This document shows positions 2,820-61,688 of a stretch of DNA of 64,000 nucleotides, piece by piece (position 1 is the stretch's first letter; the number at the start of each line of letters is the position of its first letter). Location of the stretch: positions 9,283-73,282 of the forward strand of contig JBDHHZ010000001.1 in NCBI GenBank assembly GCA_039589115.1, given 5' to 3'. Both the position numbers and the translations under genes were made by a program. The DNA is from Gemmatimonadota bacterium (GTDB lineage: Bacteria; Gemmatimonadota; Gemmatimonadetes; Palauibacterales; KS3-K002). The notes below the pieces were generated by a model, which was not told where the DNA came from, did not search any database, and was given only the letters and a program-made list of their open reading frames with translations.

Positions 2820-5024
2820 CTACTCCTCGAGCTCGAGGTTGGCGTATCGCACCACGACTTTCTTCCTGCCGACCTCGTTGAATTCGATGGTCGCCTTCAG
2901 CTCCCAACCGTGGCCGTCCAGGCCAACGACCGTACCGGCGCCGAAGCGTGGGTGCCGAACGCGACTACCTTCGGCGAGCCCGTCCAGCGGGACGGTCTCT
3001 TGCGACGCCGAATAGTCGTAGGTCAGCTCCCCGTGCCCGCTCTCGCGCTCCACCCGCAGCGGCCAGTCCGTCCAGTCCGCGGCCGTCCGGCGGCTCGATA
3101 CTCTCTCCACGTAGCGGTCCGTCTCGCGCGTTTCCAGCAGCTCCCGCGGTATGGGTCGCAGGAAGCTGGACGGGACGGAAGTCATCCAGTCGCCGGCGCG
3201 ACGGCGGCGCTTGGCGTACGTCATGTAGAGCTTCATCTGGGCTCTAGTGATGCCTACGTAGAACAGCCGGCGCTCCTCCTCGAGCTCCTCGAGGCTGTCG
3301 TGTGAGCGCGAGAGTGGAAACAGGCCCTCCTCCAGGCCCGATATGAGGACGACAGGGAACTCGAGCCCCTTGGCGTTGTGCAGCGTCATCAAGGTCACCG
3401 CATCGGCTTCGGGATCGAGGTTGTCGACATCGGCAACGAGCGAGACCTTCTGGAGAAACATATCGAGTTCCGTAATCTCGCCGATGTCCTCGAGATCCTC
3501 CGCCTCCAGCATCAGCTTCGCATCGAATTCGGAGGCTGCCGCCACCAGCTCCTCCACGTTCGCCGCCCGGTCGATCCCCTCATAGCCTTCCTCGCGGAGA
3601 CTATCCAGCAGCTTGAGCTCGACGATCAGCTCGCCGAGCAGCTGGTGCACGCTCACGTGCGAGGCGAGCGCGCGGTAGCGATCAATCATCTGGGCGAACG
3701 ATTCGAGCGCCGCGGCTCCCGCCGGCCGCATACCGCCGATGGCCCGGGCCGTGCGGGCGGCCTCGAACGGCGTGACCCCCGCCTCACGCGCCCTGGTGAG
3801 CAGCATCGTCAGTGTGGTATCTCCGATGCCCCGGCGCGGATAGTTGACGACTCTGAGAAGCGATCCCGTGTCCTTCGGGTTCGAGATGAGCTTCAGGTAG
3901 GCCAGGACGTCCTTGATCTCACGTCTCTCGTAGAACCGCACGCCCCCGATGATCCTGTATGGCAGGTCTGCATCTCGGAAGGCTTCCTCCAGCGAGCGGC
4001 TCTGCGCGTTGGTCCGGTAGAGGACGACGAAGCTGCGATGGACTAGCTCCGATCCGTTCGCCAGCTGGGCGATAATTTCGCCGGCGATCCATTCCGCTTC
4101 GTCGATCTCGTCCGCCGCCTTGATCATCGTGATGGTCGGACCGCCCTCTCTCTCGGTGAAGAGCGTCTTCCCTTTCCGGTTGATGTTCTCCTCGATGACC
4201 TTGTTCGCAGCCTGCAGGATGACCTGTGTGGAGCGGTAGTTGCGCTGCAAACGAATCGTACGCGCGGCAGGAAAGTCCCGCTCGAACTCCAGGATGTTGC
4301 GGATATCGGCTCCTCGCCAACCGTAGATCGACTGGTCGTCATCGCCGACCACGCACAGATTGCCGTGCTCCCGTGCCAGCAGCTCGATGAACCTGTACTG
4401 GGCATGGTTCGTGTCCTGGTACTCGTCTACCAGAATGAACTTGAAGCGGCGGCGGAATCGCTCGAGCACGTCGGGTTCGGACTCGAACAGCTCGACAGGC
4501 TTCATCAGGAGGTCGTCGAAGTCGAAGGCGTTGGCCTCATGCAGGCGCTTCTGATATGTGGGGTAGACATCGGCCACCGTGCGAGCGAAGGGATCGAGCG
4601 CTGTCTCGGCGAAGGTCTGCGGCGACACGAGCTGGTTCTTCGCAGCCGAGATCGCGCCCTGCACCGCCTGCGGTCTCCAGCGCTTCGGCACCTTGAGGTC
4701 CTCCATCACACGCTTGATGCCGCGCAGGCTGTCATCGGCATCGAGGATGGAGAAGCCTGGGCTGAAGCCCAGCCGGGTGGCGTTGCGCCGGAGGATCCTC
4801 GCACCCATCGAGTGGAACGTGCCGATCCACATGCCGGACGGCTCGGACCCGAGCAGGCCGTGCACACGGTTCCGCATCTCCTCCGCCGCCTTGTTCGTGA
4901 AGGTGACGGCCATGATGAGGTTGGGGTCGACTCCGTGCGGGCCCTCGAAATACTCCACAGCCCGTCGCTGATCGGGGTTAAGCGACTCGAGATACGCCCC
5001 GGTCTTCAGGTCACCCGACGGCAC
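2820..5024 (-). CDS. uvrD: UvrD/PcrA/Rep-family ATP-dependent DNA helicase
   Basis: 734-aa ORF with helicase motifs AVTFTNKAAEEM and VDEYQDTN and a UvrD-like C-terminal domain. Confidence 0.9.
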   Translation of the reverse strand: MPSGDLKTGAYLESLNPDQRRAVEYFEGPHGVDPNLIMAVTFTNKAAEEMRNRVHGLLGSEPSGMWIGTFHSMGARILRRNATRLGFSPGFSILDADDSLRGIKRVMEDLKVPKRWRPQAVQGAISAAKNQLVSPQTFAETALDPFARTVADVYPTYQKRLHEANAFDFDDLLMKPVELFESEPDVLERFRRRFKFILVDEYQDTNHAQYRFIELLAREHGNLCVVGDDDQSIYGWRGADIRNILEFERDFPAARTIRLQRNYRSTQVILQAANKVIEENINRKGKTLFTEREGGPTITMIKAADEIDEAEWIAGEIIAQLANGSELVHRSFVVLYRTNAQSRSLEEAFRDADLPYRIIGGVRFYERREIKDVLAYLKLISNPKDTGSLLRVVNYPRRGIGDTTLTMLLTRAREAGVTPFEAARTARAIGGMRPAGAAALESFAQMIDRYRALASHVSVHQLLGELIVELKLLDSLREEGYEGIDRAANVEELVAAASEFDAKLMLEAEDLEDIGEITELDMFLQKVSLVADVDNLDPEADAVTLMTLHNAKGLEFPVVLISGLEEGLFPLSRSHDSLEELEEERRLFYVGITRAQMKLYMTYAKRRRRAGDWMTSVPSSFLRPIPRELLETRETDRYVERVSSRRTAADWTDWPLRVERESGHGELTYDYSASQETVPLDGLAEGSRVRHPRFGAGTVVGLDGHGWELKATIEFNEVGRKKVVVRYANLELEE

Positions 5025-6137: not shown

Positions 6138-7414
6138 ACCCGCTCGATCCTCGTGCAGCCCATGTACGGGTGCAGCACCTCAGGGAGCTCCACGCTCCCA
6201 TCCTCCCGCTGATAGTTCTCGAGGATGGCGATCATCGTTCGCGGCAACGCGAGTCCCGAGCCATTGAGCGTGTGAACGAACTCCGGCTTCCCACGAGGCT
6301 CGCGCCGAAAGCGTATGTCGGCGCGCCGCGCCTGGTAGTCGGTGCAGTTCGAGCACGAGGAAACTTCAAGCCAACGCTCGACGCCCGGCGACCATACCTC
6401 CAGATCATAGGTCATCGAACTCGACTGCGCCATGTCGCCGGCCGCGAGTAGTACGACCCGGTAGGTGAGGCCCAAGCGCTGCAGGATCTTCTCGGCATGA
6501 CCGGTGAGCTCCTCGAGCGCCGCCTCCGAGTCCTCGGGGCGCTCCAGTCGTACGAGCTCCACCTTGTCGAACTGGTGGATCCGCAGAATGCCCCGCGTGT
6601 CACGACCGGCGGCGCCGGCCTCGCGCCGGAAACAGGCGGTGTACGCGACGAAATGGCGCGGCAGGCTGTCAGGGGCCAGCACCTCTCCGCCGTGCAGGTT
6701 CGTGAGTGGAACCTCGGCGGTGGGTATCAACCAGAGATCATCTGTCTCTACGTGGTAGGCATCATCGGCCAGCTTCGGCAGCTGGCCCGTTCCCCGCATC
6801 GTCTCGCTCCGCACGATATACGGGGGCTGCACCTCGGTGTGACCGTGCTCCCGGACATGGACGTCGAGCATGAAGTTGATCAGGGCACGCTGCAGGCGGG
6901 CGCCCAAGCCCACGTAGACTGGGAACCCGGAACCGGACAGCTTGGCGCCGCGCTCCAGATCGAGGATGCCGAGCTCGGCGCCGAGATCCCAGTGCGGCCG
7001 CCGCCAGTCCACCGCATCAAGAGGCTCGCCCCACGAACGGACCTCCAGGTTCGCCGACTCGTCGCCGGCGGGTACGTGGGGCTGTGGTGTGTTCGGTATC
7101 TCGAGCAGCAGCTGCTCGATCCGTCCTTCGCTAGCGGCCAACTCCGCGTCGTGGCTGGAGATTCGCTCCGCAACCTCCCGCATGTCGCGGATCAGGTCCG
7201 AAGCGTCTTCGCCCGCCTTCTTCCGATCGGCTATCTCCTTCGACGCCTCGTTGCGGCGCGCCTTGAGCTCCTCGACCGTTTGGATGATCCGGCGCCGCTC
7301 TTCGTCCAGCCGCACGACCTCGCCGAGCGATCCCGTCAAGTCAGGGTCGGCTCGCTTGGCAAGCTGCTCCCCGACCGCATCGGTCTCGAACCGGATTCGC
7401 TTGAGGTCGAGCAT
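6134..7414 (-). CDS. serS: seryl-tRNA synthetase
   Basis: 426-aa ORF with an N-terminal coiled-coil arm and class-II aaRS core motifs (e.g. FRREAGAAGRDTRGILRIHQFDKVE). Confidence 0.93.
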   Translation of the reverse strand: MLDLKRIRFETDAVGEQLAKRADPDLTGSLGEVVRLDEERRRIIQTVEELKARRNEASKEIADRKKAGEDASDLIRDMREVAERISSHDAELAASEGRIEQLLLEIPNTPQPHVPAGDESANLEVRSWGEPLDAVDWRRPHWDLGAELGILDLERGAKLSGSGFPVYVGLGARLQRALINFMLDVHVREHGHTEVQPPYIVRSETMRGTGQLPKLADDAYHVETDDLWLIPTAEVPLTNLHGGEVLAPDSLPRHFVAYTACFRREAGAAGRDTRGILRIHQFDKVELVRLERPEDSEAALEELTGHAEKILQRLGLTYRVVLLAAGDMAQSSSMTYDLEVWSPGVERWLEVSSCSNCTDYQARRADIRFRREPRGKPEFVHTLNGSGLALPRTMIAILENYQREDGSVELPEVLHPYMGCTRIERV

Positions 7415-7428
7415 AGCCTACCGAGCCG

Positions 7429-8016
7429 CTACGTCCCGTCCCCGGTAGCAACGGTGGTGTCGTCGCAGTTGGGATTCCAGAGGAAGCGGAAGCTAATGCG
7501 CATCGGGTCCCCGCCGACGGAGTCGACGACCATCTTCAGGAAGATGTGGCAGGGCAGCGATAGCGAGGGATTGGGTCGACTGCGGATCGCGTAGGTGGCA
7601 CCCGGGTTCACCGGCACGGGCTCCTCGTACTCATAGAACTCCGAATCCCCCGGAAGCAGCGTGATGTTCTCGAAGTCGCCCTGCATCTCCAGTATCCCGG
7701 CGGAAGGCGCCAACGTCTCGAAAAAGCCGCGCGGCAGAAAGAAGGGCTCCCCTTCGATAGCCGCGAAGGCTATGTCCCAGTTCTCGCTCTGATCGACGCG
7801 TACGGTGCGTGGCAGGTTGAGCCCCTGGGCCGCTACGACATCGAAAGCGCTCGAGCGGTCGATGGGGCCGGCGATCAGGTCGTACAGCGTGGCGTCGAAC
7901 GGTACTTCCGGGGGTGGGTAGGAAGTATCTAGGCTGTCGCCACACGAGAGCAGCGCACCCAACGTGAGCAGAAGGGCGACTGTCATACGGGCCGGAGGAC
8001 GCTTGATATTCACCAT
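7429..8016 (-). CDS. hypothetical lipoprotein
   Basis: Internal start (ATG at 8016) gives MVNIKRPPARMTVALLLTLGALLSCG, a signal peptide with a lipobox cysteine. The upstream part of the long ORF is arginine-rich and not protein-like. Confidence 0.5.
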   Translation of the reverse strand: MVNIKRPPARMTVALLLTLGALLSCGDSLDTSYPPPEVPFDATLYDLIAGPIDRSSAFDVVAAQGLNLPRTVRVDQSENWDIAFAAIEGEPFFLPRGFFETLAPSAGILEMQGDFENITLLPGDSEFYEYEEPVPVNPGATYAIRSRPNPSLSLPCHIFLKMVVDSVGGDPMRISFRFLWNPNCDDTTVATGDGT

Positions 8017-8145
8017 GATTGACGGGCCAAGCTTACCCGGGCCGAGCGTGGCTGTCAAGCCGCGAACCCTAGAGAACGCTTGACTTTGTGGGCTCGCGCG
8101 GGTAGCTTGCCCGCACCCCCCGTCCGACCAGACCGTAGGAGCCGA

Positions 8146-9601: not shown

Positions 9602-10816
9602 GTGCCTCACACCGGACTGATCCTCTTCGACGATCTGCAGGCCCGGCGCTGGGAACCCTTCGCCCTCACACGACCGGCGGGGGAGCTGATCTTTGGTGCG
9701 ATGAAGCTGGTAGAGCGGGCGGAGCGGGCCCTGGGGCTCGAGTGTATCGGATACCTGACCTCGGAACACCTGGCAGATTTCCACGAGACCGGAACACCCG
9801 AAGTGCTGGGTCTCGGTGACCTGCCGGAAGACAGGGACCTCCTCTTCTGGTGCTCGCGCGCCGTCGTCGATGCCGGAGAGCAGCTGGCCGTGCCTGCCGG
9901 CGCGGGCGTCTACGTCATCGACAGCCAACCCGTGGGACTCCTGGTCCCCGCGGGCCAGCGGCCCGAATCCGGATTCCTAGACGGCCTGGAGGTCACGGCG
10001 CGGCCGGAGGCCGAGCTTGCCGTCGAAGGTCGCCTCCTGGAATGGGTGTGGGACCTGTTGCTCGAGACACCCGACCAGCTTGGACGCGACCTGGCCAGCG
10101 TGGCGGGAAGGCGCGGGCAGCGAACGCGCAGGGGCGTCTTCGTCGAAGGACGGCACCGGTTGATCCTGGGGAGCGGGGTGCGGATCGAGCCTGGAATCGT
10201 CTTCGATACGCGAGCCGGGCCGATCCTACTGGGCGACGAGGTCGAGGTCCGCGCCGGCACCCGGCTGGAGGGACCCGCTGTGGTGGGCACCCGGTCGCGT
10301 CTGCTGGGCGGCTCGTTCGAACGGATCAGCGCCGGGCCGCGCTCGTACCTGCACGGCGAGATGGCTGACAGCGTGGTTCTGGGATACACCAACAAAGCTC
10401 ACGACGGCTACCTCGGCCATTCATATCTCGGCAAGTGGGTCAACCTGGGCGCGTTGACGACGAACAGCGACCTGAAGAACAACTATCGCCCAGTTCGCGT
10501 GTGGACGCCGGGGGGCGTGCTGGACAGCGAGAGAACGAAGCTAGGGTGCTTCTTCGGCGACCATGTGAAGACCGGGATCGGCATGATGCTCGGCACTGGC
10601 ACGGTGGTGGGCTCCGGCGCTAACCTATACGGGAGCGCCATGCCCCCTCGCTATGTAGAACCGTTCAGTTGGGGAGAGGGCGAAGCGCTCGGTGAGTATC
10701 GCCTGGCCGAGTTCCTGGATACTGCAGATCGAGTCATGGCCAGGCGCGGCGTTGAACTGGGCGAGCGCGGGCGGCGCTACCTGGAAAGTTGCTGGCGCAA
10801 AGGGCGGGGTGGATGA
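9602..10816 (+). CDS. putative sugar nucleotidyltransferase-like protein with a left-handed beta-helix (hexapeptide) domain
   Basis: GTG at 9602 directly after the manC stop. C-terminal hexapeptide-repeat character (GDHVKTGIGMMLGTGTVVGSGANL). Confidence 0.55.
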   Translation: MPHTGLILFDDLQARRWEPFALTRPAGELIFGAMKLVERAERALGLECIGYLTSEHLADFHETGTPEVLGLGDLPEDRDLLFWCSRAVVDAGEQLAVPAGAGVYVIDSQPVGLLVPAGQRPESGFLDGLEVTARPEAELAVEGRLLEWVWDLLLETPDQLGRDLASVAGRRGQRTRRGVFVEGRHRLILGSGVRIEPGIVFDTRAGPILLGDEVEVRAGTRLEGPAVVGTRSRLLGGSFERISAGPRSYLHGEMADSVVLGYTNKAHDGYLGHSYLGKWVNLGALTTNSDLKNNYRPVRVWTPGGVLDSERTKLGCFFGDHVKTGIGMMLGTGTVVGSGANLYGSAMPPRYVEPFSWGEGEALGEYRLAEFLDTADRVMARRGVELGERGRRYLESCWRKGRGG

Positions 10817-17494: not shown

Positions 17495-18445
17495 TTACCC
17501 TTCGCTGGTATCTTCGCCGGCATCCTCCACAGTCTCCGGCGGCCCTCCTTCGTTCTCCTCGGCCGGGCCCTCTACCTCACCGCCTTCGGCGCCTTCGGCC
17601 TCGCCGGGCGGGCGGTGCGCCGCGAGAACCTCGGGTCGCGGCCGCCTCTTCTTTCGCGACTTCCGGCCACCCGAGTCACGCTCACCGACCGACACTGCGG
17701 CGTCGCTCGAGTAGGTGAAGACCTCTTCCTCTTCCTCGGCGACGGCGCGGCGCAGCTCCTCCGGCACCTCGGCCATCGCGCTCTGGACCGTGTCGGCGAT
17801 CTCGCCGGTGATCAGCGAGACGGAGCGGATCGCATCGTCGTTGCCAGCGATCGCGATCGTCAGAAGGTCGGGATCGGCGTTCGTATCGGCGATCGCTATG
17901 ACCGGAACGCCCAGCTTGTTCGCCTCGGCCACCGCGATGCCCTCCTTACGAGAATCCACGATGAAGAGACAGCCCGGCGTCCGCGTCATGTTCTTGATGC
18001 CCGACAGATAGCGGTCGAGTTTCTCCCGCTCCCGCTCCAACAGCAGCCGCTCCTTCTTGGTATAGAACTCGAACGCACCCTCTTCCACGCCGCGCTCGAG
18101 CTCTTTGAGCCGGCGGATGTTCTTCTTGATCGTCTGGAAGTTGGTGAGCATGCCGCCCAGCCAGCGCTCGGTGACGTAGAAGGCTCCGCAGCGCTCGGCC
18201 TCGGCCCGGACGATCCCACTCAGTTGCGTCTTGGTGCAGACGAAGAGCACGTTTTCGCCGCGGTGGATGACCTCTCGAACCAGGTCCTTAGCACGCTGCA
18301 GCTCGCGGAGTGTCTTCCTGAGGTCGATGATGTAGATGCCGCCGCGCTCCGCGAAAATGTAGTGGCGCATCTTCGGATTCCACCGGCGCGTCTGATGTCC
18401 GAAGTGGACTCCGGCTTGGAGAAGTTCTTCGATTGCTACTGCCAT
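17495..18445 (-). CDS. rpsB: 30S ribosomal protein S2 with a ~90-aa acidic C-terminal extension
   Basis: MAVAIEELLQAGVHFGHQTRRWNPKM from an ATG at 18445. The C-terminus is Glu/Gly/Ala-rich. Confidence 0.92.
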   Translation of the reverse strand: MAVAIEELLQAGVHFGHQTRRWNPKMRHYIFAERGGIYIIDLRKTLRELQRAKDLVREVIHRGENVLFVCTKTQLSGIVRAEAERCGAFYVTERWLGGMLTNFQTIKKNIRRLKELERGVEEGAFEFYTKKERLLLEREREKLDRYLSGIKNMTRTPGCLFIVDSRKEGIAVAEANKLGVPVIAIADTNADPDLLTIAIAGNDDAIRSVSLITGEIADTVQSAMAEVPEELRRAVAEEEEEVFTYSSDAAVSVGERDSGGRKSRKKRRPRPEVLAAHRPPGEAEGAEGGEVEGPAEENEGGPPETVEDAGEDTSEG

Positions 18446-20478: not shown

Positions 20479-20829
20479 CAGCCAAAGACAAGCCAAGGGA
20501 TGATTGTACAACGGTCGGGTCTTACGGACCAGGTTACCAAGCCTCGATGAACAAAGCCCCAATGGCGGGAGTCTCGCGAGTTATCGCGATCGTCGCCCAA
20601 GACGTAGCAACTATCTTCCGGGACGACTATGGGACCTCAATTGTCACGTGTCGGCCGATAAGTCGTGGCATCGACTTCCGGCGCCAGGTACGCCCGCTGA
20701 CACTTGAACTGCGCGTCGTAGTAATCCCGGCCCGGGAATATGTTCTGCACGTACGCCTCTTCGTGGCGCACATCATTCACATACAACTTACCGCCCCGCA
20801 TCGCAACTCGGGGGCGGCTCCGATCGGAT
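20479..20829 (-). pseudogene. degenerate tandem copy of the lepB 3' half, interrupted by an in-frame TGA
   Basis: Directly after the lepB stop, the minus strand encodes ...MRGGKLYVNDVRHEEAYVQNIFPGRDYYDAQF..PEVDATTYRPTRDN*GPIVVPEDSCYVLGDDRDNSRDSRHWGFV. This parallels lepB MRHGELYLNGERQTESYVQ...YRPTRDDWGPILVPVDSYFVMGDNRDNSQDSRYWGFV with TGG replaced by TGA. There is no N-terminal catalytic part. Confidence 0.6.
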
Positions 20830-21603
20830 CTAGCGTACGAGGTTACCTACCCGGCCCCATCGCACTTCGGTAAGCCAGGGAAGCGGCCGGAGCTTGCTGC
20901 GATCGAACGAGTAGTAGATGAAAAGGGGTCGACCTTTGATCAGGCCCCGGTCGACGAAGCCCCAGTATCGCGAATCCTGCGAGTTATCCCGGTTGTCGCC
21001 CATCACGAAGTAGCTGTCCACCGGCACGAGGATGGGGCCCCAATCGTCACGCGTTGGACGATAAGTGTCCTCATTCACCTCCGGCGCCAGGTGCTTCCGC
21101 TGCCACTCGAACTGCGGATCGTAGTAGTCGCCGGCCGGCTGCGTGTGCTGAACGTAGCTCTCCGTCTGGCGCTCACCGTTCAAATACAGCTCGCCGTGGC
21201 GCATGCTGACCCGGTCACCGGGCAGGCCGACGACCCGCTTCACGTAGTTCTTCGATGGGTCGATCGGGTATTGGAACACGACCACATCGGCCCGTTCCGG
21301 GCTATCGAAGGCGGGGAGTCGGATAGCGGTGAACGGCACCTGAGCGCCGTAGACAGCCTTGTTGACCAACAGAAAATCCCCGACCAGCAGGGTCCTCTCC
21401 ATCGAACCGGTGGGGATCTTGAAAGCCTCTACGGCAAAAGTCCGAATGACGAGGAACAGCAGGATCGCTACCGATATCGACTTGACCCACTCCCAGAGCC
21501 AGCGGCCCGTGCTCGCGGGCTCGGACCGGCGCTTCCCTTCCTCCGGCTGCTGTTCCTTCGCACCCTGTGGTTTCTTCGCGTGGTCTCGCTTCTTCGCCAT
21601 CAC
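20830..21603 (-). CDS. lepB: signal peptidase I
   Basis: Transmembrane anchor, catalytic serine box (KIPTGSMERTL), lysine region (VKRVVGLPGDRV) and the GDNRDNSQDSRYWG box. Confidence 0.9.
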   Translation of the reverse strand: MMAKKRDHAKKPQGAKEQQPEEGKRRSEPASTGRWLWEWVKSISVAILLFLVIRTFAVEAFKIPTGSMERTLLVGDFLLVNKAVYGAQVPFTAIRLPAFDSPERADVVVFQYPIDPSKNYVKRVVGLPGDRVSMRHGELYLNGERQTESYVQHTQPAGDYYDPQFEWQRKHLAPEVNEDTYRPTRDDWGPILVPVDSYFVMGDNRDNSQDSRYWGFVDRGLIKGRPLFIYYSFDRSKLRPLPWLTEVRWGRVGNLVR

Positions 21604-24066: not shown

Positions 24067-24072
24067 TTCGAC

Positions 24073-24157
24073 CAGTATGCGGTGTGCGGTATGCAGTGTG
24101 CGGTGACCAGCTGACCGGTTGTCAGTTACCTCATACTGCATACGGCAGACCGCATGC
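24073..24157. repeat. imperfect palindrome built from tandem heptamers (GTRTGCR)n / (YGCAYAC)n, copy A
   Basis: CAGTATGCGGTGTGCGGTATGCAGTGTGCGGTGACC ... TCATACTGCATACGGCAGACCGCATGC, intergenic. Confidence 0.8.
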
Positions 24158-24283
24158 CGATGTCAAGCTGAGTTGCGGTTCCGAAGGAGCCCCACCTCAC
24201 GTCGTCGTCTCGTCATCGCCCGCGCCCGCGTCCGCGACTACAATTGGAATCGCGGGCGATGACGCGACGATGACGCCGACGAG

Positions 24284-24357
24284 TACCGCGTGCGGTATGC
24301 GGTGACAGATGGCCAGTTGTCAGCTACCGCATACTGCATACTGCAAACCGCACACCG
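24284..24357. repeat. heptamer palindrome, copy B
   Basis: TACCGCGTGCGGTATGCGGTGACAG ... CAGCTACCGCATACTGCATACTGCAAACCGCACACCG, ending 3 nt before the comM stop. Confidence 0.8.
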
Positions 24358-24360
24358 TTG

Positions 24361-25890
24361 TCACGGACTCCGATCCAGTCCGCGGTACTGAATGGCTTCC
24401 GCCATATGGGCCGATCGGATGATCTCGCACCCCTCGAGGTCGGCGATGGTGCGGGCGATCTTGAGCACTCGGTGGAATGAGCGAGCCGACAAGTTGAAGC
24501 GGCCCATAGCGGCTCGCAGGAGTGACATTCCGGTATCGTCAGCGCGGCAGAACATGCGGACCTCACGCGCTCCCATCTGGCCGTTCGCATACAGATGCAC
24601 CCGGTCCTTGAAGCGGGCCAGCTGAGTCCGTCTGGCCCCCTGCACACGTTCCGACACGGCCATCGAGCCCTCCGCCTCCACGGTGTCCAGCAGGTCGGGA
24701 CAGGAGACCGGGGGCACCTCTATGTGCAGGTCGATGCGGTCGAGCAGCGGCCCTGAGATTCTGGCTCGATAGCGGCGGATGAGCGTGGGCGTACATCGGC
24801 ACTTCCTGCGACCGTCGCCTAGGTGCCCGCAAGGGCACGGGTTCATCGCCGCCGCGAGCACGAAGCTGGCCGGATAGGAGAGCGAGCGCGCCGCCCGTCC
24901 GATCGTCACCTGGCCGTCCTCCAGCGGCTGGCGGAGCACCTCGAGCACGTTACGGCGGAACTCGGTCAGCTCATCCAGGAAGAGCACGCCACGGTGGGCC
25001 AGCGACGCCTCGCCGGGTCTCGGAACGGCGCCGCCTCCTACCAGTCCCGCATCGCTGATCGTGTGGTGCGGCGCGCGGAAGGGCCGCTCGGTGATCAGCC
25101 CACGTTCTGGCGGCAGCTGCCCAGCCACCGAGTGTACGCGGGTCACCTCGATGGCCTCTTCGATGCTGAGCTGCGGCAATATCGTCGGGAAGCGACGGGC
25201 GAGCATGGTTTTGCCGCCGCCGGGAGGGCCAATCATCAGAATGTTATGGCCGCCTGCCGCCGCGATCTCCAGGGCGCGCTTGGCGTGCTCCTGTCCCCGC
25301 ACATCGCTCAGGTCGACGCTCGAGCCGGGCCGCCGCCGCAGCAACGCGCCGCGGTCGAACCGCAGGCCGGCTAACTCAGATTCACCCCGCAGGAAGCTGG
25401 TCACCTCGGCCAACGACGATGCGCCACGCGCATCGAGTCCCTCGACGACGGAGGCTTCCGCCAGGTTGGCCGTGGGAACGATGAAGCCATGAAGCCCGGC
25501 GCGCCGCACCGCCTGCGCCATCGACAGAGCGCCACGGATCGGCCGCAGCGCGCCGTCCAGCCCCAATTCACCCGCCATCGCATAGCGTTCCAGCGGGTCG
25601 ACCGAGAGCTGAGAGGTGGCAGCCAACAGGCCGCACGCGATGGGCAGATCGAAGTGGCTGCCCTCTTTCTTGATGTCCGCCGGCGCCAGGTTGATCGTGA
25701 TCTTCCTGGGCGGGACCTCGAACCCCGAGTTCTGGACCGCCGACAGGACCCGCTCTTTGCCCTCTTTGACCGCGCTCTGCGCCAGCCCCACCGTCGCCAT
25801 CGCCGGCAACCCGGCCGAGGCGTCCACCTCGACTACGACGATATAGGCGTCGATACCCAGTATTCCCGCCGTCCGACAGCATGCCAGCAT
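24361..25890 (-). CDS. comM: YifB/ComM-family Mg-chelatase-like AAA+ ATPase
   Basis: ATG at 25890 (MLACCRTAGILGIDAYIVVVEVD), Walker A (GPPGGGKTMLARR) and a C-terminal Mg-chelatase ChlI-like region. The 67-aa N-terminal extension of the long ORF is translated from a palindromic repeat. Confidence 0.85.
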   Translation of the reverse strand: MLACCRTAGILGIDAYIVVVEVDASAGLPAMATVGLAQSAVKEGKERVLSAVQNSGFEVPPRKITINLAPADIKKEGSHFDLPIACGLLAATSQLSVDPLERYAMAGELGLDGALRPIRGALSMAQAVRRAGLHGFIVPTANLAEASVVEGLDARGASSLAEVTSFLRGESELAGLRFDRGALLRRRPGSSVDLSDVRGQEHAKRALEIAAAGGHNILMIGPPGGGKTMLARRFPTILPQLSIEEAIEVTRVHSVAGQLPPERGLITERPFRAPHHTISDAGLVGGGAVPRPGEASLAHRGVLFLDELTEFRRNVLEVLRQPLEDGQVTIGRAARSLSYPASFVLAAAMNPCPCGHLGDGRRKCRCTPTLIRRYRARISGPLLDRIDLHIEVPPVSCPDLLDTVEAEGSMAVSERVQGARRTQLARFKDRVHLYANGQMGAREVRMFCRADDTGMSLLRAAMGRFNLSARSFHRVLKIARTIADLEGCEIIRSAHMAEAIQYRGLDRSP

Positions 25891-25971
25891 GTCCCTGACC
25901 TCCCGCAGGCAACCGACCGGACTGTCGCGGGTCGGGATCAACGGAGAATCAACAACGCTTCGCGGAGTTGG

Positions 25972-26148
25972 GGAGCTAGCAGGGAGGTAGGGAGCGCTAA
26001 TTGAGTGAGGGAGCAACTCAGCAAGGGAGACTGCGAGTTTGGAGGTGACGGACCTCCAATGTATCACCTCGCACCTCGAAGTCTCCCTCACTCCTCTGCT
26101 CCCTCACTCTACTAACGCTCCCTACCTCCCATGCTCCCCTCCGCACCG
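25972..26148. repeat. ~177-bp G-rich imperfect inverted repeat (GGGAGGTAGGGAGCG... arms) in the divergent comM/creatininase intergenic region
   Basis: Left arm GGGGAGCTAGCAGGGAGGTAGGGAGCGCTAATTGAGTGAGGGAGCAACTCAGCAAGGGAGACTGCGAG pairs with the reverse complement of the right arm ...CTCGAAGTCTCCCTCACTCCTCTGCTCCCTCACTCTACTAACGCTCCCTACCTCCCATGCTCCCCTCC. Centre is GGAGGTGACGGACCTCC. Confidence 0.8.
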
Positions 26149-26226
26149 GCCTTGACGCCGACCCTGTGGTCGCACAACGTCCCGGAGCCCCAATCACCGG
26201 AACCTCAGACGGGAGACTTCGACCGG

Positions 26227-26970
26227 GTGGCTGGTTCGACCAGACCCAAGACGCCGCGTCCGCTGCTGCTGGCGGACATGTCGTGGCCAGAGGTCGCAGA
26301 GCATCTGGAGCGGGACCGCCGGCTGATCATCCCCATCGGGACCTGCGAGCAGCACGGCCGACACCTCCCGCTCGGGACCGATTCCCTGCTCGCCGAACGG
26401 CTCGCCAACGACCTGTCGGAGGAGTTCGGCGTGCTCGTCGCCCCTACCCTGGCCTACGGCGTGAACGTCGACACCGAGCAGGCCTACGCCGGCACCGCCT
26501 CGCTGAGGCGGAAGACGCTGCACCGGGCGCTGAACGACCTGCTGGCCGCCTGGGAGGGCCACGGGTTCGAGGAGTTCATCCTGATCACGGCACACTTCCA
26601 CGACCCGCACCTCGACGCGGTAACCACCGTGGTGACGGAGCATGCCCGGGCACGAGTCGTCGACCTGCAGAGCGTGCGAATCGGGGAGTTCCTCGAAAAG
26701 CAGCTCCAGCCGGAGCACGCCGGCGAGGCCGAGACCTCGGTGATGTTGTACCTGTACCCGGACCTGGTTCGCGTCGACGACATCGAGGACTACCCGCTCG
26801 ACCCGAAACAGCTGCGGCGTTACCTTCGAGGCCGAATGCCACGTCCACCAGAAGGCTGCAAAGGTGCGATTGGACACCCATCGGCGGCCACTGCCGAGAA
26901 AGGTGAGAAGATCTACAAGTATGTCCTCGAGAAGATCAGGACGAAGATCTTTGATGAGCCCGAGGATTAG
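26227..26970 (+). CDS. creatininase-family amidohydrolase
   Basis: The LADMSWPEVAEHL...IIPIGTCEQHGRHLPLGTD motifs match the creatinine amidohydrolase family. Start is uncertain: a GTG at 26227 or an ATG at 26278. The ORF-track start at 26131 lies inside the palindrome. Confidence 0.7.
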   Translation: MAGSTRPKTPRPLLLADMSWPEVAEHLERDRRLIIPIGTCEQHGRHLPLGTDSLLAERLANDLSEEFGVLVAPTLAYGVNVDTEQAYAGTASLRRKTLHRALNDLLAAWEGHGFEEFILITAHFHDPHLDAVTTVVTEHARARVVDLQSVRIGEFLEKQLQPEHAGEAETSVMLYLYPDLVRVDDIEDYPLDPKQLRRYLRGRMPRPPEGCKGAIGHPSAATAEKGEKIYKYVLEKIRTKIFDEPED

Positions 26971-28456: not shown

Positions 28457-28497
28457 AACAGCTGCCGGAGCAGCGGCTCCGGCAGCTGTTTCTTTCC
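28457..28497 (+). terminator. rho-independent terminator downstream of the Yip1 gene
   Basis: Perfect stem AACAGCTGCCGGAGC / GCTCCGGCAGCTGTT around an AGC loop, followed by TCTTTCC. Confidence 0.75.
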
Positions 28498-28770
28498 GCC
28501 GGCAGCCGCCGGAGGCTAGGCCGCAGGGGGTGGCCGTCGGCCTGCCAAATCGGCGAAACTCTTGACCTGAGCGCTCCGTACGGCTAAGCAAAGCGCTGCA
28601 GCCAGTTACTGCCGGCCCGGGATCTAGGGAGAGAACGCCGGCGCACGCCTGCGGCAGCGCCCCGACCGGTTTGGAGGTGCGATCGTGCCGCCCTCAGCGT
28701 TATGACGAATAAAGCTGTTTACTGTTGTGTATTCACTAATCGGAACCCACTCGCTAACTGGAGTTCGGTC

Positions 28771-30294
28771 ATGAAGTGGAGAGCGGTCCCCAGCGCGCTT
28801 CTCGCGTTGCTGTTCATCAGTGTAGGCACCGTAGACGCTCAGGTCGCGACCCTCACACTGGAGGAGGCGATCGAGCTGGCCAGGGCAAACAACCCCTTGT
28901 TCCTGCAGACCCTGAACGATGTGACCCCGGCCGAGTGGGGCGTGCGGGCAGCCAACGCCAACCTGTTCACGCCCAACGCCGATCTCTCGTTCGCCACGTC
29001 CTGGCAGGACGCCGGTCAGCAGCGGTTCGGTGGTTTCACGTCCGCCCAGCCCTCGGTGTTGATCTCTAACTACTCGTTCAGTTTGACCTACGCGTTGAAC
29101 GGCACGACGATCTTCCAGCCGGGTCAGCGGAGGGCGCAGCGAGACGCCGTCGAACGAAGAGTCGATAACGCCGAGCTTCAGCTCCGCAGTCAGGTGACCG
29201 CTGCCTATCTCGAGGTCCTCAGGCTGGAGGCCCGGGCGGTGCAGGCGGAGCGAGAGCTGAATCGTTCGGAGGAGCATCTGCGGCTCGCCGAGGCGCGCGA
29301 ACAAGTGGGTGCCGGGACGCGCCTGGAGTCGATGCAGGCGGATGTAGCTCGCGGCCAGGCCGAGGTCGCGATGATCGTGGCCCAGAACGCGGCCCGGGTA
29401 TCGAAGCTCCGGCTGATCCAGGCGTTAGGCGTCCAGATGCCGCAGGGGCAGATCGAGTTGGTGAGCGAGTTCGAGATTTTCGAGCCGCAACTGGATATCG
29501 AGAACTGGCTCTCGGAGGCCCTGGTGGCTCACCCGACTCTGGTGGCGGCGCGGGCCGAGCGTGCTGCGGCCAACTCGACCGTGAAGGTAGCGAAGGCGTC
29601 CTACTTCCCGACCCTCGCACTTCGAGCAAGCTGGAGCGGCTTCACGCGAGAGGAAACCGATCCGACCTTCACGATCAACAATTCGATAAACAACGCCCAA
29701 AACAACTCGACGGCGGTGGTCGGGCTCTGCAATACCTTCAACGAGCTCTACACGCGCAGCGGAGACGGCAGCGTGCCGCCCGAGTTCGGCGATTGTCAGC
29801 AGTTCGTGTTCACGCCTGAGGACTCCGCCTCCATCGATCAATCGATCAGGCGGAGCAACGCCGTCTTCCCGTTCGACTTCGCCAACGAGCCGGTCACCCT
29901 GAGCGCCTTCTTCTCTCTGCCGCTCTGGAGCGGCTTCGATCGCCAGGTACAGGTCGAGCAGGCGATCACGCTTCGCAACGACCTCGACTACGCGGTCAGG
30001 GGCCTGGAGCTGCAGATCCACGCCGACGTCACAGAGGCGGTCCACAATCTGGAGACTGCGCATCGGACGGTGCAGCTGCAGGAGGAGAACACGGCGCGGG
30101 CTCGCGAGGAGATGCGCCTGGCGCAGGAACGCTATCAATTGGGCGCCGGCACTTTTCTCGAGCTGCTGGATTCACAGACGCTAACAGCCCAAGCGGAAGT
30201 AGATCAGATCGAGGCGGTCTTCGGATTCCACCAGTCGCTGGCCGCCCTCGAGGCCGCGGTTGGCCGTCCGCTTCAGCTTTCCGGAGGGAACTAG
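28771..30294 (+). CDS. TolC-family outer-membrane efflux protein
   Basis: ATG at 28771 (MKWRAVPSALLALLFISVGTVDAQ signal peptide) and two TolC-like repeat halves. Confidence 0.8.
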   Translation: MKWRAVPSALLALLFISVGTVDAQVATLTLEEAIELARANNPLFLQTLNDVTPAEWGVRAANANLFTPNADLSFATSWQDAGQQRFGGFTSAQPSVLISNYSFSLTYALNGTTIFQPGQRRAQRDAVERRVDNAELQLRSQVTAAYLEVLRLEARAVQAERELNRSEEHLRLAEAREQVGAGTRLESMQADVARGQAEVAMIVAQNAARVSKLRLIQALGVQMPQGQIELVSEFEIFEPQLDIENWLSEALVAHPTLVAARAERAAANSTVKVAKASYFPTLALRASWSGFTREETDPTFTINNSINNAQNNSTAVVGLCNTFNELYTRSGDGSVPPEFGDCQQFVFTPEDSASIDQSIRRSNAVFPFDFANEPVTLSAFFSLPLWSGFDRQVQVEQAITLRNDLDYAVRGLELQIHADVTEAVHNLETAHRTVQLQEENTARAREEMRLAQERYQLGAGTFLELLDSQTLTAQAEVDQIEAVFGFHQSLAALEAAVGRPLQLSGGN

Positions 30295-35705: not shown

Positions 35706-35800
35706 AGAGAGTTGGGGAACCGCGGAACGGCCGCAGTTTGTTGGGAATTCTCGAAGGCGATTCGGTGATTCGGTGATTCGGGGGGCCGGGGAAGTTTAGA
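35706..35800. repeat. ~100-bp intergenic repeat, copy 1 (GAGTTGGGGAAC...GGGAATTCTCGAAGGCGATTCGGTGATTCGGTGATTCGGGGGG)
   Basis: Shares about 30 identical nt plus a flanking tandem 8-mer (TTCGGTGA/TTCGGGGG) with the reverse complement of 50193..50276. Confidence 0.75.
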
Positions 35801-35971
35801 GGTCTCGGAGGAGCCGTTGCGATGGCAGGCTCCTCTTACCGCGACGGCGAGGGCGCGGAAGGGGCTACGAGCGGACATTTGGGGCGCGGCGGCGGCGCAG
35901 CCGCCGTGCCTGCAATCGAGCCGCGCGACATGGAGCGAGAGCCCCTTCCGTGCCCGAGCGGTAGACGCGAC

Positions 35972-37162: not shown

Positions 37163-38251
37163 GTGCAGAACACTAACGCAGACCGTCCCCGCATACTGGT
37201 CGCCATGAGCGGCGGCGTCGACTCATCGCTGGCCGCGGCCCTGCTCGTCGAGCGGGGCTACGAGGCGATCGGCGCCACGATCAAGACCTTCTGCTACGCC
37301 GAAGTACCGGGCTCGTCCAAGACCTGCTGCGGGCTGGAGGGCATCGCCGACGCCCGCGCCGTGGCGCAGCGGCTGGGCATCCCGCACTACGTGTACGACC
37401 TCGAGGAAGAGTTCACCCACGACGTGATCGACGACTTCGTCGCCGAGTACGCGCACGGCCGCACGCCCAACCCCTGCGTGATGTGCAACTCGTACACCAA
37501 GTTCCGTGACCTGCTGCGCCGGGCGCGCATGTTGGGCTGCGAGCGCATCGCCACCGGCCACTACGCCCGCTGCGTACGCTCCGGCGACACGACTCAGCTC
37601 CTCAGGGCGGCCGACCTCTCAAAGGACCAGACGTACTTCCTCTGGGGGATCGATCGCGAGGTGCTGGACCGGCTGGAGCTGCCGGTCGGCGACCTGACCA
37701 AGGCGGAGGTCCGCGCCCGGGCCCGGGAGCTGGGCCTGGAGACGGCCGACAAGCCGGAGAGCTTCGACATCTGCTTCGTACCCGACGGCGACTATGCCAG
37801 CTTCCTGGCTACGCGCCTGGACGACGATCACGCCGCCTTCCAGCCCGGGCCCATCGTCACCATAGACGGCGAAAAGATCGGCGAGCACGACGGCTATTGC
37901 CGCTTCACCGTCGGCCAGCGCAAGGGACTGCCCGGCGGTTTCGCGGAGCCGATGCATGTGGTGAGGATCGAGCCCGCCACACGGACGGTGGTCATCGGGC
38001 CGGCCAGCGCGCTGGAATCGCTGGAGGTCACGGTCACCGACCTCAACTGGCTCGGCGCTCCGCCGCGACCCGGCGATGAGATAGGCGTCCAGATCCGCCA
38101 CCGCGGAAGCGAAGTCGCCGGCCGAGTCGTCGAGCTGACCGACGAGTACGCCCGCGTCGAGCTCTTCGAGTCACACCGCGCGGTGATGCCGGGTCAGTCG
38201 GCGGCGGTTTATGATGGCGAGGTTCTTCTGGGAGGCGGGAGGATTCGGTGA
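37163..38251 (+). CDS. mnmA: tRNA 2-thiouridine(34) synthase
   Basis: GTG start; PP-loop SGGVDSS and catalytic cysteines. A cysteine desulfurase immediately upstream fits the pathway. Confidence 0.92.
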
Positions 38252-38323
38252 GCGGTGTGCAGTATGCGGTATGCAGTGTGCGGTGACGGCTACCGCACAC
38301 TGCACACTGCAAACTGCATACTC
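38252..38323. repeat. heptamer palindrome, copy C, between convergent mnmA and dnaJ; possible bidirectional terminator hairpin
   Basis: GCGGTGTGCAGTATGCGGTATGCAGTGTGCGGTGAC ggct ACCGCACACTGCACACTGCAAACTGCATACTC. Confidence 0.8.
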
Positions 38324-38352
38324 TTCACAATTCAAACTTCAGATTACGAAGT

Positions 38353-48451: not shown

Positions 48452-48528
48452 CCACCTGAGAGGCTCCGCGCGGACGCGGTTCGAATCTAACTATTCGGCA
48501 GGTTGGGATCGACACGCAAGTAGGACAT

Positions 48529-48615
48529 CAGTATGCGGTGTGCGGTGTGCGGTAGGATGAGAGTCGCACCCGCCACTCGCGGCTCTGATCACCGCATACT
48601 GCATACTGCACACTG
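48529..48615. repeat. heptamer palindrome, copy D
   Basis: CAGTATGCGGTGTGCGGTGTGCGGT ... ACCGCATACTGCATACTGCACACTG, with an internal mini-palindrome in the loop; intergenic. Confidence 0.8.
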
Positions 48616-48626
48616 AGTACCGGCCC

Positions 48627-50031: not shown

Positions 50032-50065
50032 AGCGCTATCAACTAAACCTCAAGTTCTGGTAATG

Positions 50066-50185
50066 ATGGGAGGTAGGAGCGCTAGTAGATCCCGGGGATC
50101 AACAGATCAGAGGATCAATCGATTCACGAGGTGATCCGGATGAGCCGTCAAATCCTACCTCGCAGTCTCCCTCGCTCAATTGCCA
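50066..50185. repeat. degenerate copy of the G-rich palindrome family seen at 25972..26148
   Basis: GGGAGGTAGGAGCGCTAGTAGA ... CCTACCTCGCAGTCTCCCTCGCTCAATTG; compare GGGAGGTAGGGAGCGCTAATTGAGTGAGGGAG...GGGAGACTGCGAG. Confidence 0.6.
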
Positions 50186-50192
50186 AGACCTC

Positions 50193-50276
50193 TGCACTTC
50201 CCCGAACCCCCGAACCCCCGAATCACCGAATCGCCTTCGAGAATTCCCAGCCAACTCCCCCGTCCCCAACTCCTAG
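50193..50276. repeat. ~100-bp intergenic repeat, copy 2, inverted relative to 35706..35800
   Basis: CCCCGAACCCCCGAACCCCCGAATCACCGAATCGCCTTCGAGAATTCCCAGCCAACTCCCCCGTCCCCAACTC is the reverse complement of GAGTTGGGGA...GGGAATTCTCGAAGGCGATTCGGTGATTCGGGGG. Confidence 0.75.
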
Positions 50277-55427: not shown

Positions 55428-56020
55428 GCCCGGTATCGGCTGCGTGTCGTCGGATGACGCGTACCACGGCAGTTCCACCGATCCGGGCTGCGGGCCTCGG
55501 CGGGCAACTCGACCTCGAGCCCTGCCGCGTTCAGCACGATGCAGGACTCGAAGCCCGGGATCGGGCCCGCCTCCAGCCAATCCTGCGCCGACACACAGGG
55601 CAAGAGACGCGCGTCGTTGTCGGGAAGTCTGGCGGCGATCTTCTTCCAGCGCGGGTGCTGATAGAGGACGTTGATCGGAGGCGACGAGCTGCCCACCGCC
55701 AGGAAGTAGAAGGTCTCCGAGTCGGGTTTGCGCGCCACGGCGGAGAAGGCGGCATCGCGGTACAGAACATCGACGATGCCCGGGCCTTCATCGATCCCCA
55801 GGGCAGCAGCGAGAGCGGATGGGGCTCTCATCTGCAGGTCGGCCAGCACTACTTTCGGATGTTGCTTTGCCAGCTTGCGGACGATCTCGATCGCGGTGCT
55901 AACCGCCCAGCGCCGCTGGCGCGGCGTCTCCGCCGCTAGCACGAGCGTCGCGGCATGCGGCCATAGTGCGTCAGTCCTCGGCGCCGAAGTATCCACGTTC
56001 ACCACCTCCCAATTTCCCAA
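55355..56020 (-). CDS. hypothetical protein with a ParA/MinD-like fold but a degenerate Walker A; the C-terminal ~45 aa look out-of-frame
   Basis: ATLVLAAETPRQRRWAVSTAIEIVRKLAKQHPKVVLADLQMRAPSALAAALGID parallels ParA KIIAVANQKGGVGKTT..NLAAALAQRGKRVLLVDLDPQGN..GLGID, but the KGGxGK[ST] motif is missing. The C-terminal tail is arginine-rich and overlaps the next ORF. Confidence 0.4.
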   Translation of the reverse strand: MGNWEVVNVDTSAPRTDALWPHAATLVLAAETPRQRRWAVSTAIEIVRKLAKQHPKVVLADLQMRAPSALAAALGIDEGPGIVDVLYRDAAFSAVARKPDSETFYFLAVGSSSPPINVLYQHPRWKKIAARLPDNDARLLPCVSAQDWLEAGPIPGFESCIVLNAAGLEVELPAEARSPDRWNCRGTRHPTTRSRYRAWSRGRSATRGREWRRVQVRRLDP

Positions 56021-57675: not shown

Positions 57676-57790
57676 GGCGGTACTGTGGCGGTCTGGCAAG
57701 GCTGTCGGTGGCCAGTGGCCGGTGGCCGGTGGCCAGTTGGCTATTCGGGATTACCGGCTACCGGCCACCCGGCTACCGGCTACCAGCTGC
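57676..57790. repeat. intergenic palindrome from tandem heptamers (GGTGGCC / GCCRGTG)n and (TACCGGC)n
   Basis: GGTGGCCAGTGGCCGGTGGCCGGTGGCCAGTTGGC tattcgggat TACCGGCTACCGGCCACCCGGCTACCGGCTACCAGC. The arms are complementary only if G-T(U) wobble pairs are allowed on the plus strand. Confidence 0.75.
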
Positions 57791-61452: not shown

Positions 61453-61504
61453 ATACGGCCTTAGCGAGCTCCTCACAAGCTGAACATGTTGCTCTTTCAA
61501 CACT

Positions 61505-61655
61505 CAATATCCGACACTCAGCAACCACTGATCAAATAGATCCTCAAGGGTCAAGGGCCAAGGAACAATGACCGATGATCACAGCCAATGATCATTGGTC
61601 ATCGGACATCGGACCTTGTCACTTGGGCTTTTCCTTGGCAACTGGTTATCGAGTG
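61505..61655. promoter_or_regulatory. AT-richer intergenic region with nested inverted repeats (operator-like), upstream of rsfS
   Basis: Perfect 15-bp inverted repeat CAATATCCGACACTC (61505..61519) / GAGTGTCGGATATTG (61641..61655). Inside: CCGATGATCA ... CCAATGATCATTGG ... TGGTCATCGG. GC is well below the window average. Confidence 0.5.
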
Positions 61656-61688
61656 TCGGATATTGATTACTGGTTCTGTCCTCTCATG

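Follow-up and report, generated by a model that had tools for sequence, protein, structure and literature searches.

The stretch of DNA analysed here, a 64,000-nucleotide window from a Gemmatimonadota bacterium, is occupied by housekeeping genes (gatA, uvrD, serS, dxr, uppS, ribosomal protein genes, rpoD, dnaJ/grpE, recR, dnaX and smc), and no transposase or integrase gene was found in it or in any examined locus of this population (~79 kb). JGI gene calls place the start of comM at 25890 on the minus strand and that of a creatininase-family gene at 26278 on the plus strand, and the 387-bp divergent spacer between them holds the palindrome that we call E1. Two longer open reading frames reach into this spacer: the one at 24361-26091 (minus strand) extends 201 nt beyond the comM start, and the one at 26131-26970 (plus strand) begins 147 nt ahead of the called creatininase start. 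Its closest neighbours in the species collection are MAGs of Gemmatimonadota and Longimicrobiales, and comM and the creatininase gene are divergent neighbours also in two Gemmatimonadota relatives, L002 (78% ComM identity) and L003 (70%).

Elsewhere in the window, a direct repeat of 264 nt at 71% identity (20538-20801 and 20941-21204, spaced 403 nt) lies in or near the signal-peptidase and small-ORF region. ARAGORN predicts a tRNA-Gly(GCC) at 17806-17899, which at 94 nt is unusually long for tRNA-Gly, and Rfam at gathering thresholds lists no tRNA at that position.

The palindrome between comM and the creatininase gene

E1 is a full foldback element of 183 nt (25962-26144), a member of a GGGAG-type palindromic repeat family, recognised by its inverted repeat, its fold, its match to a family profile and an empty site in relatives. 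The arms lie at 25982-26048 and 26064-26130 (67 nt, 81% complementary, 15-nt gap), and the outer pairing GCGGAG...CTCCGC widens the element to its full extent; the palindrome reported in the preliminary description is thus real, and its start lies some 10 nt to the left of the 25972 given there. Folded as RNA, E1 reaches -117.8 kcal/mol on the plus strand (z -12.1) and -136.5 kcal/mol on the minus strand (z -13.2), with none of 200 shuffles equally stable, and as DNA it reaches -64.4 kcal/mol (z -11.3); across the 64 kb it is the most stable fold of all 200-nt segments. The element is not an assembly artefact, because its sequence is base-for-base identical in JGI contigs L096, L097 and L098, which come from three samples and independent assemblies.

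The two halves of E1 differ in composition. The left arm (25962-26055) is 69% purine and 45% G on the plus strand, where each of the three frames is stopped within the outermost 41 nt, and the right arm (26056-26144) is 51% C on the same strand with almost no stop codons, so that read on the minus strand it becomes a G-rich 5' half; the frames that run through E1 are all interrupted by stops. Near the outer ends lie the terminal modules, GGGAGGTAGGGAGCGCTAATTGA on the left (25982-26004, plus strand), the best-conserved part of the family, and on the right (26108-26130, minus strand) its counterpart with reverse complement GGGAGGTAGGGAGCGTTAGTAGA, which the alignment supports and which shares with the left module an exact 15-mer. 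A mini-hairpin, TTGGAGGTGACGGACCTCCAA / TTGGAGGTgacggACCTCCAA (26038-26059), is seen in the sequence, in the tip structure and as an alignment gap, since it belongs to a ~19-nt segment specific to E1 and missing from the other full copies (columns 73-91). It had been taken as the centre of the palindrome; it is present, slightly to the left of the geometric centre (~26056). Within the arms GGGAG occurs five to six times at a spacing of 8-19 nt, with little periodicity (period 8 is best, at a self-match of 0.44). An arm folded singly acquires no significant structure (z +1.0, -2.3, -0.7 and -0.6; MFE -1.7 to -6.8 kcal/mol), and the left arm of E1 folded alone gives z -0.7.

Rfam at gathering thresholds returns no match in the whole window, and at permissive E-values it gives only sub-threshold eukaryotic miRNA-precursor hairpins on both strands, which leads us to reject membership in an Rfam family. 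No terminator-like site or U-tract was found in 25800-26350, and an intrinsic terminator is rejected on that ground and because E1 lies upstream of both flanking genes.

How E1 came to lie in the spacer becomes apparent when the filled site is compared with the empty one, for which we used an affine-gap pairwise aligner and inspection by eye. On the creatininase side, the block GGCGTCAAGGCC, which on the creatininase strand has the sequence CCTTGACGCC, with CAACGT 17 nt farther on, is found in the window, in L002 and in L003; in the window this promoter-like block occupies 26150-26180 on the plus strand (TTGACG 26152-26157, 17-nt spacer, CAACGT 26175-26180) and begins 6 nt past the end of E1. 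On the comM side the three genomes share the block GTTGATnTTCCGTTGA, and upstream of comM a conserved motif, GTTGATTCTCCGTTGATCCCG (25933-25953, minus strand), appears as GTTGATCTTCCGTTGATCCCG in L002 and as GTTGATATTCCGTTGA in L003. Between the conserved anchors GTCAAGGC and GTTGATnTTCCGTTGA lie 16 nt in L002 and 32 nt in L003, as against ~197 nt in the window, where the palindrome makes up the difference. Since the relatives lack the element and have their blocks 16-32 bp apart, the comparison shows E1 as a ~185-bp insertion into a ~12-16-bp spacer between back-to-back promoter-like blocks, both of which remain intact beside it; at the distance of these genomes (78% and 70% ComM identity) the exact boundaries of the insertion, and any tiny duplication, fall below the resolution of the comparison.

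We read the spacer blocks as putative promoters because a similar block precedes the gene of an M28 peptidase in three genomes: TTGCGC, a 16-nt spacer and TACGTT stand 11 nt after a second copy of the element, E2, and are conserved in L103 and L105. The conservation of such blocks on both sides of E1 in three genomes bears out the earlier placement of the palindrome in a divergent promoter region. A scan with a generic sigma-70 consensus found nothing, and the form TTG(A/C)CG-N16-17-(C/T)A(A/C)CGT, which precedes creatininase and M28 peptidase genes (window 26152-26180, L100 3614-3645, L103 ~3955-3985, L105 ~1963-1995), is possibly the sigma-70-type promoter of this lineage. The direct-repeat motif GTTGATnnTCCGTTGA upstream of comM is conserved in three Gemmatimonadota (window 25933-25953, minus strand; L002 9931-9951; L003 ~2045-2060) and could be an operator or a -35 region.

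The preliminary description had staked part of its case on conservation of the palindrome at the orthologous locus, and here it did not hold up: E1 is absent from the orthologous spacer in both Gemmatimonadota relatives compared, L002 and L003. This absence speaks for a recent insertion and against a conserved regulatory site, and E1 is most likely neutral at the comM/creatininase locus. Nothing suggests a conserved regulatory role for it there, because the relatives do without it and because it lies upstream of both promoter-like blocks. Its likely physical effect is to have moved the divergent promoters ~185 bp apart, with a predicted cruciform-capable sequence between them; actual extrusion of a cruciform is conceivable.

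A dispersed family of foldback elements

E1 had been described as one copy of a dispersed repeat, a claim that hung on the existence of further copies. These exist, and the claim survives. A scan of the JGI metagenome collection with a 23-nt terminal pattern matched a single contig, L082, which starts inside an element (the collection evidently lacks the source samples); the gene beside that element led through the protein P0001 to the 10-kb contig L100, which shares its sample of origin with the window's JGI contig but may not belong to the same genome. L100 carries three full copies, E2 (3473-3601), E3 (6795-6924) and E4 (7909-8040), located by an anti-diagonal best-segment palindrome scan and the family profile, together with a solo arm (9913-9987) found with the profile. 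The L082 copy comes from a different, related metagenome. The profile, built from the alignment A4 of the four full copies E1-E4 (mean identity 82%), recovers E1 itself at 25979-26133 (nhmmer, E 3e-42) and, in a search of 1.62 Mb of loci, matches only E1, the L100 copies, L082 and positions 50065-50183 of the window.

The last of these, on the minus strand, is a degenerate, truncated family member (copy 2; E 1.9e-9, with 39 nt at 82%), which aligns over its full length to the reverse complement of E1 and retains just one of the two terminal modules, together with an inner arm of A type and an arm that has diverged to a GATC-rich sequence. A degenerate second copy of the palindrome had been claimed at this place; the rearranged homologue is there, but it is not self-complementary (fold z +0.1 and -0.3). 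The left terminal module GGGAGGTAGGGAGCGCTAATTGA recurs in copy 2, in L082, in the L099 contig discussed below and in E2-E4.

No copy was found in the loci of other genomes (~1.6 Mb), including the syntenic L002, L003, L103, L104 and L105. Pseudo-peptides of E1 from both strands, compared with a database of 5.8 billion proteins, revealed no copies called as open reading frames; all ten matches of the 15-mer terminal motif in viral contigs are chance matches, with no similarity past the 15-mer; and a plasmid blastn gave no match to the element. With at least six loci or fragments in ~79 kb of this population, the family is shown to be multi-copy and, on these searches, appears restricted to this lineage; rough extrapolation from the ~79 kb would put the genome-wide copy number at tens to a few hundred.

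The copies have a common ancestry, because the terminal module is common to them, as are the asymmetric internal loops, which stand unpaired at the same columns in all four full copies. Family members measure ~130-185 bp and have, on either strand, a G-rich 5' half (~45% G) and a C-rich 3' half. At each end stands GGGAGGTAGGGAGCG(C/T)TA(A/G)T, the terminal module being exact on both arms of E1, with two to four octamers GGGAGNNN ahead of it, the number of which varies among copies. The hairpins of the copies fold as RNA with z from -7 to -19, and all four full copies fold better on the minus strand, by way of G·U pairs. A compensatory change is seen in only one of the 51 consensus pairs, 16 of the 51 fail to pair in one or more copies, and covariation scores unfavourably (term +2.69); with so few compensatory changes, the copies look like decaying descendants of one imperfect palindromic master and not like a selected RNA structure. 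No consistent target-site duplication is found at the four copies: the best direct repeats are of 2-3 nt, appear only with shifted boundaries and differ among the four.

All copies are intergenic or overlap just the last codons of a gene, and the distribution of stop codons within the element accounts for the way it meets its neighbours. In five of eight copy orientations (both orientations of E2 and E4, and the plus strand of E1) the G-rich 5' half has stops (TAG, TAA, TGA) in all three frames within ~20-41 nt, and in the other three orientations two frames are stopped; consequently upstream genes can end inside the element, as with the UbiA stop, which adjoins E2, and the 330-aa gene that stops 20 nt into E3. 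The C-rich 3' halves are nearly stop-free, so outward reading frames stay open. This explains the two spurious N-terminal extensions at comM and creatininase (201 nt and 147 nt), which the preliminary description had rightly attributed to the element, and likewise the over-long 279-aa and 272-aa NCBI 'creatininase' proteins P0128 and P0126. The contigs of two further cluster members, P0123 and P0127, hold C-terminal gene fragments only and add no spacer alleles. At the three other loci the element adjoins or overlaps the stop codon of the gene upstream and, in two of them, ends 12-13 nt before the next start, and two of the four full copies, E1 and E2, end 6-11 nt upstream of a conserved -35-like hexamer; such proximity to -35-like hexamers or start codons could hint at a function or at a target preference. 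The paralogues around some of these copies form tandem arrays of three to four genes (L100 5821-9084, L103 6115-10258, L105 8813-12144) whose products, 325-346 aa long, have a Cys-rich N-terminus (MxKTCIYCN...) and lack Pfam domains; such genes are widespread across Gemmatimonadota, with E<=1e-20 for 7999 of 8000 scored database candidates.

Closely related strains differ at the element sites. The L099 contig matches the window at 99.6% downstream of the element and shows no difference over the interval that runs from CCTTGACGCC up to the creatininase start; leftward of CCTTGACGCC it has the same terminal module, which is the sole part of E1 common to both alleles, followed by four octamers where the window has three and by a GATC-rich interior like that of copy 2. 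L099 is therefore a different subtype at the same site as E1, as represented by a single contig that starts inside the element. Both L099 and L082 begin at the centre of the palindrome, and assemblers typically break at hairpins. The L082 locus is that of E3 in L100, with the same junction between gene and element, and the element is inverted with respect to E3, because the gene-proximal arm in L082 is of the 'right-arm' type. We read these two variants as possible products of gene conversion through the shared termini and of flip recombination between the arms; re-insertion of an element at a preferred site is a possible alternative. Beyond the element, 73 bp in a PPC-domain gene and 43 bp at 55489 are present in JGI contigs but missing from the window, L097 and L099 lack 44 bp and 38 bp of intergenic DNA, respectively (indel sites 48266/48267, 55489, 57719-57725, 29013-29056 and 28495-28532), and SNPs cluster at 28616-28752 and 55712-55871.

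The window holds other repeats as well. A second, unrelated intergenic foldback family (24070-24165, 24290-24363, 38236-38331 and 48526-48622) has arms of tandem heptamers GTATGCG / GTGTGCG / GTATGCA; one of its members fills the gap between the convergent stops of mnmA and dnaJ, and two lie between comM and the next gene, where together with a third palindrome (24196-24275) they fold with z -6.5. Membership of E1 in this group is rejected in view of its weakly periodic arms (period 8, self-match 0.44). A third repeat family, built of CCGAAYC/CCCCGAA units, occurs at 35735-35808 and 50183-50256 (74 nt, 88% complementarity between the two loci), and the second of these abuts copy 2 and shows four SNPs in ~50 nt between strains, against a background of ~0.2%. 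At 61504-61666, between rsfS and dak2/degV, lies a GATCA-rich palindrome of 163 nt (78-nt arms at 72%, fold z -6.7) with one SNP between strains. Hairpins made of inverted tandem arrays of 6-8-mers recur between genes of Gemmatimonadota, Ignavibacteriota, Acidobacteriota and Smithellaceae, with a unit that differs per genome (L093 170-280, L002 1128-1179, L007 14308-14367, L016 11561-11631, L053 15380-15471, L068 826-934, L104 334-433, L105 10987-11088), and in L105 one occupies the site orthologous to that of E3. Paired heptamer arrays of this sort have been listed as putative global regulator sites in Geobacter metallireducens (PMC2700814).

Known repeats and competing explanations

Among described repeats, the ERIC/IRU sequences of enterobacteria are ~127-bp imperfect palindromes that are strictly intergenic, often intercistronic and non-coding, vary by internal indels and have no known transposase. 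The present family resembles them in size, in that the whole element is one imperfect palindrome, in its intergenic or intercistronic, non-coding character and in internal indels such as the ~19 extra nt at the centre of E1; it differs in its unrelated sequence and phylum, in its G/C-skewed arms with their usual three-frame stops, and in that no TA or other duplication is seen. With MITEs (Correia elements of Neisseria, RUP/BOX-type elements) it shares small size (130-183 bp, below the customary ~500 bp), lack of coding capacity, multiple copies, terminal inverted repeats (GGGAGGTAGGGAGCG) and a position near genes or promoters. The inverted repeat here spans the whole element, however, and not the termini alone, and we know of no related IS with the same ends; since no target-site duplication accompanies the copies, a MITE in the strict definition is rejected. 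The modular mosaic make-up recalls the BIMEs of E. coli, the RIMEs of rhizobia and the SNRs of Deinococcus, whose sequences are unlike: one terminal module occurs with an A-type GGGAG or a B-type GATC-rich interior (copy 2, L099), and an unrelated repeat family abuts copy 2 (50183-50256). REPINs are doublets of REP sequences that form hairpins and are mobilised by RAYT transposases (PMC3116915, PMC3337134). Like them, the elements described here are extragenic, form a long hairpin of two inverted halves, lack target-site duplications, occur also as solo halves and are lineage-specific and apparently vertically inherited. A REP is, however, itself a short palindrome, whereas single arms here fold no better than shuffles, for which reason a reading as REP is rejected; the halves measure 60-90 nt as against ~20-25 nt plus spacer, and no gene for a RAYT (an IS200/IS605-like Y1 transposase) was found in ~79 kb of this population.

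These comparisons have to be weighed against explanations in which the palindrome does something for the cell. That the hairpin is kept as a structure of benefit to the host, as an RNA stabiliser, terminator or attenuator, or as a DNA cruciform or supercoil sink that insulates the divergent promoters, seems rather unlikely to us. The folds are very stable, three copies adjoin stop codons and two of them lie between cistrons of the paralogue array, the genome CP070815 (L105) has a different palindrome at the same intercistronic position, and E1 and E2 end close (6-11 nt) upstream of -35-like hexamers; all of this would suit a structural role. Yet the variation breaks pairs and compensates at most one in 51, for every copy the more stable fold is that of the strand antisense to the neighbouring L100 genes, a terminator-like U-tract was not found, relatives that otherwise conserve the genes of these loci lack the element, and E1, being upstream of both promoter-like blocks, would probably be in neither mRNA. 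The position after stop codons, together with the conserved asymmetric bulges, the replacement of one element by another at an identical site in L099 and the inversion in L082, would also be expected if the palindromes were substrates of a site-specific recombination that recognises hairpins, be it of attC-like cassettes or of other folded single strands. Integron attC sites, too, are imperfect palindromes (~60-140 nt) that immediately follow a stop codon and conserve asymmetrically placed unpaired bases, the arms here hold GTTGAGT and ACTCAAC, which fit the core motifs GTTRRRY and RYYYAAC, and a toxin-antitoxin pair adjoins the solo arm. Even so, we judge this very improbable, since the order of core and inverse core is reversed (GTTRRRY 5', RYYYAAC 3'), the motifs are internal (~17-20 nt inside the ends) and such a degenerate 7-mer is by our estimate expected by chance in ~6% of arms. 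The neighbours (comM, ubiA and the M28 peptidase gene) are core housekeeping genes in conserved synteny, kept in relatives without the element, not cassettes, and no integrase occurs in any examined locus; attC as such is therefore rejected.

It is also highly doubtful that a DNA-binding protein, be it a regulator, a nucleoid protein or a transposase acting subterminally, recognises the GGGAG(N3) units as its sites and that the palindrome is a by-product of paired inverted arrays. The five to six GGGAG per arm at 8-19 nt and the two to four tandem octamers GGGAGNNN at the outer ends, variable in number between copies, could be so understood, and paired opposite-strand heptamer arrays have been taken as putative regulator sites in G. 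metallireducens (PMC2700814); the weak period of the arms (8, self-match 0.44), the want of a known candidate protein and of a functional theme common to the loci speak against it, and the idea overlaps with that of a mobile element, as the sites could bind a transposase. Least credible is a regulatory G-quadruplex in the promoter region, which had been raised for the GGGAG-rich strand. Support is marginal: the G-rich halves reach G4Hunter peaks of 1.56 and -1.72 and the L099 allele has a canonical G3N5G3N5G3N5G3, but E1 and E2 lack the canonical motif (four runs of at least three G, loops 1-7 nt) on either strand, which leads us to reject the reading for E1. Three G-runs are followed by a 16-nt loop, and the strand that carries a G-rich half also carries its C-rich complement, so that a hairpin or duplex (DNA fold -64 kcal/mol) should outcompete a quadruplex.

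Origin and meaning of the family

We consider it fairly probable, at about 60%, that E1 represents one copy of a foldback repeat that is non-autonomous, specific to its lineage and ERIC/REPIN/MITE-like in kind, a copy probably neutral where it stands. The family would have multiplied inside one Gemmatimonadota lineage and settled in intergenic 'safe' sites, presumably copied in trans by an enzyme encoded elsewhere; we infer this mobility solely from the distribution of copies and one empty site. As there is no target-site duplication, the mechanism is probably of a single-stranded hairpin or recombination type and not that of a DDE cut-and-paste transposase. After insertion the copies would decay and lose arms, may flip by recombination between their own arms, and may exchange interiors by gene conversion through the shared terminal modules. 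Where they are transcribed, as the intercistronic copies of L100 might be, hairpins of -72 to -112 kcal/mol could act as barriers to RNA degradation or as termination barriers by analogy with REP and ERIC.

A bolder idea, which we regard as improbable, is that a hitherto undescribed hairpin-targeting mobilisation or recombination system in Gemmatimonadota stands behind the family. Such a system would place foldbacks directly after stop codons or a few nt upstream of -35 elements, would swap whole elements at one site (A-type in the window, B-type in L099, with flanks 99.6% identical), would flip elements in place as between L082 and E3, and could fill the same intercistronic slots with unrelated foldbacks, of the GGGAG type here and of a GAATG-heptamer type in CP070815. 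If this were true, the slots shared across species would imply a conserved mechanism acting on fast-evolving substrates.

On the reading as a lineage-specific foldback repeat, the elements are best described as a new family of a known kind, the interspersed palindromic intergenic repeats. To our knowledge, work on repeats of the REP/REPIN, ERIC, Correia and BIME types has been confined almost entirely to Proteobacteria and a few Firmicutes; the present family is a clean example of an interspersed palindromic repeat from an uncultured Gemmatimonadota lineage. It is instructive in that the whole element folds back without target-site duplication, keeps its asymmetric loops and is replaced or inverted at fixed sites, and in that the usual three-frame stops on its inward-facing halves let it land on the ends of genes. 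The element also explains contig breaks at the palindrome centre (L099, L082) and over-extended N-termini in NCBI gene calls (P0128, P0126): annotators of such MAGs should mask the family.
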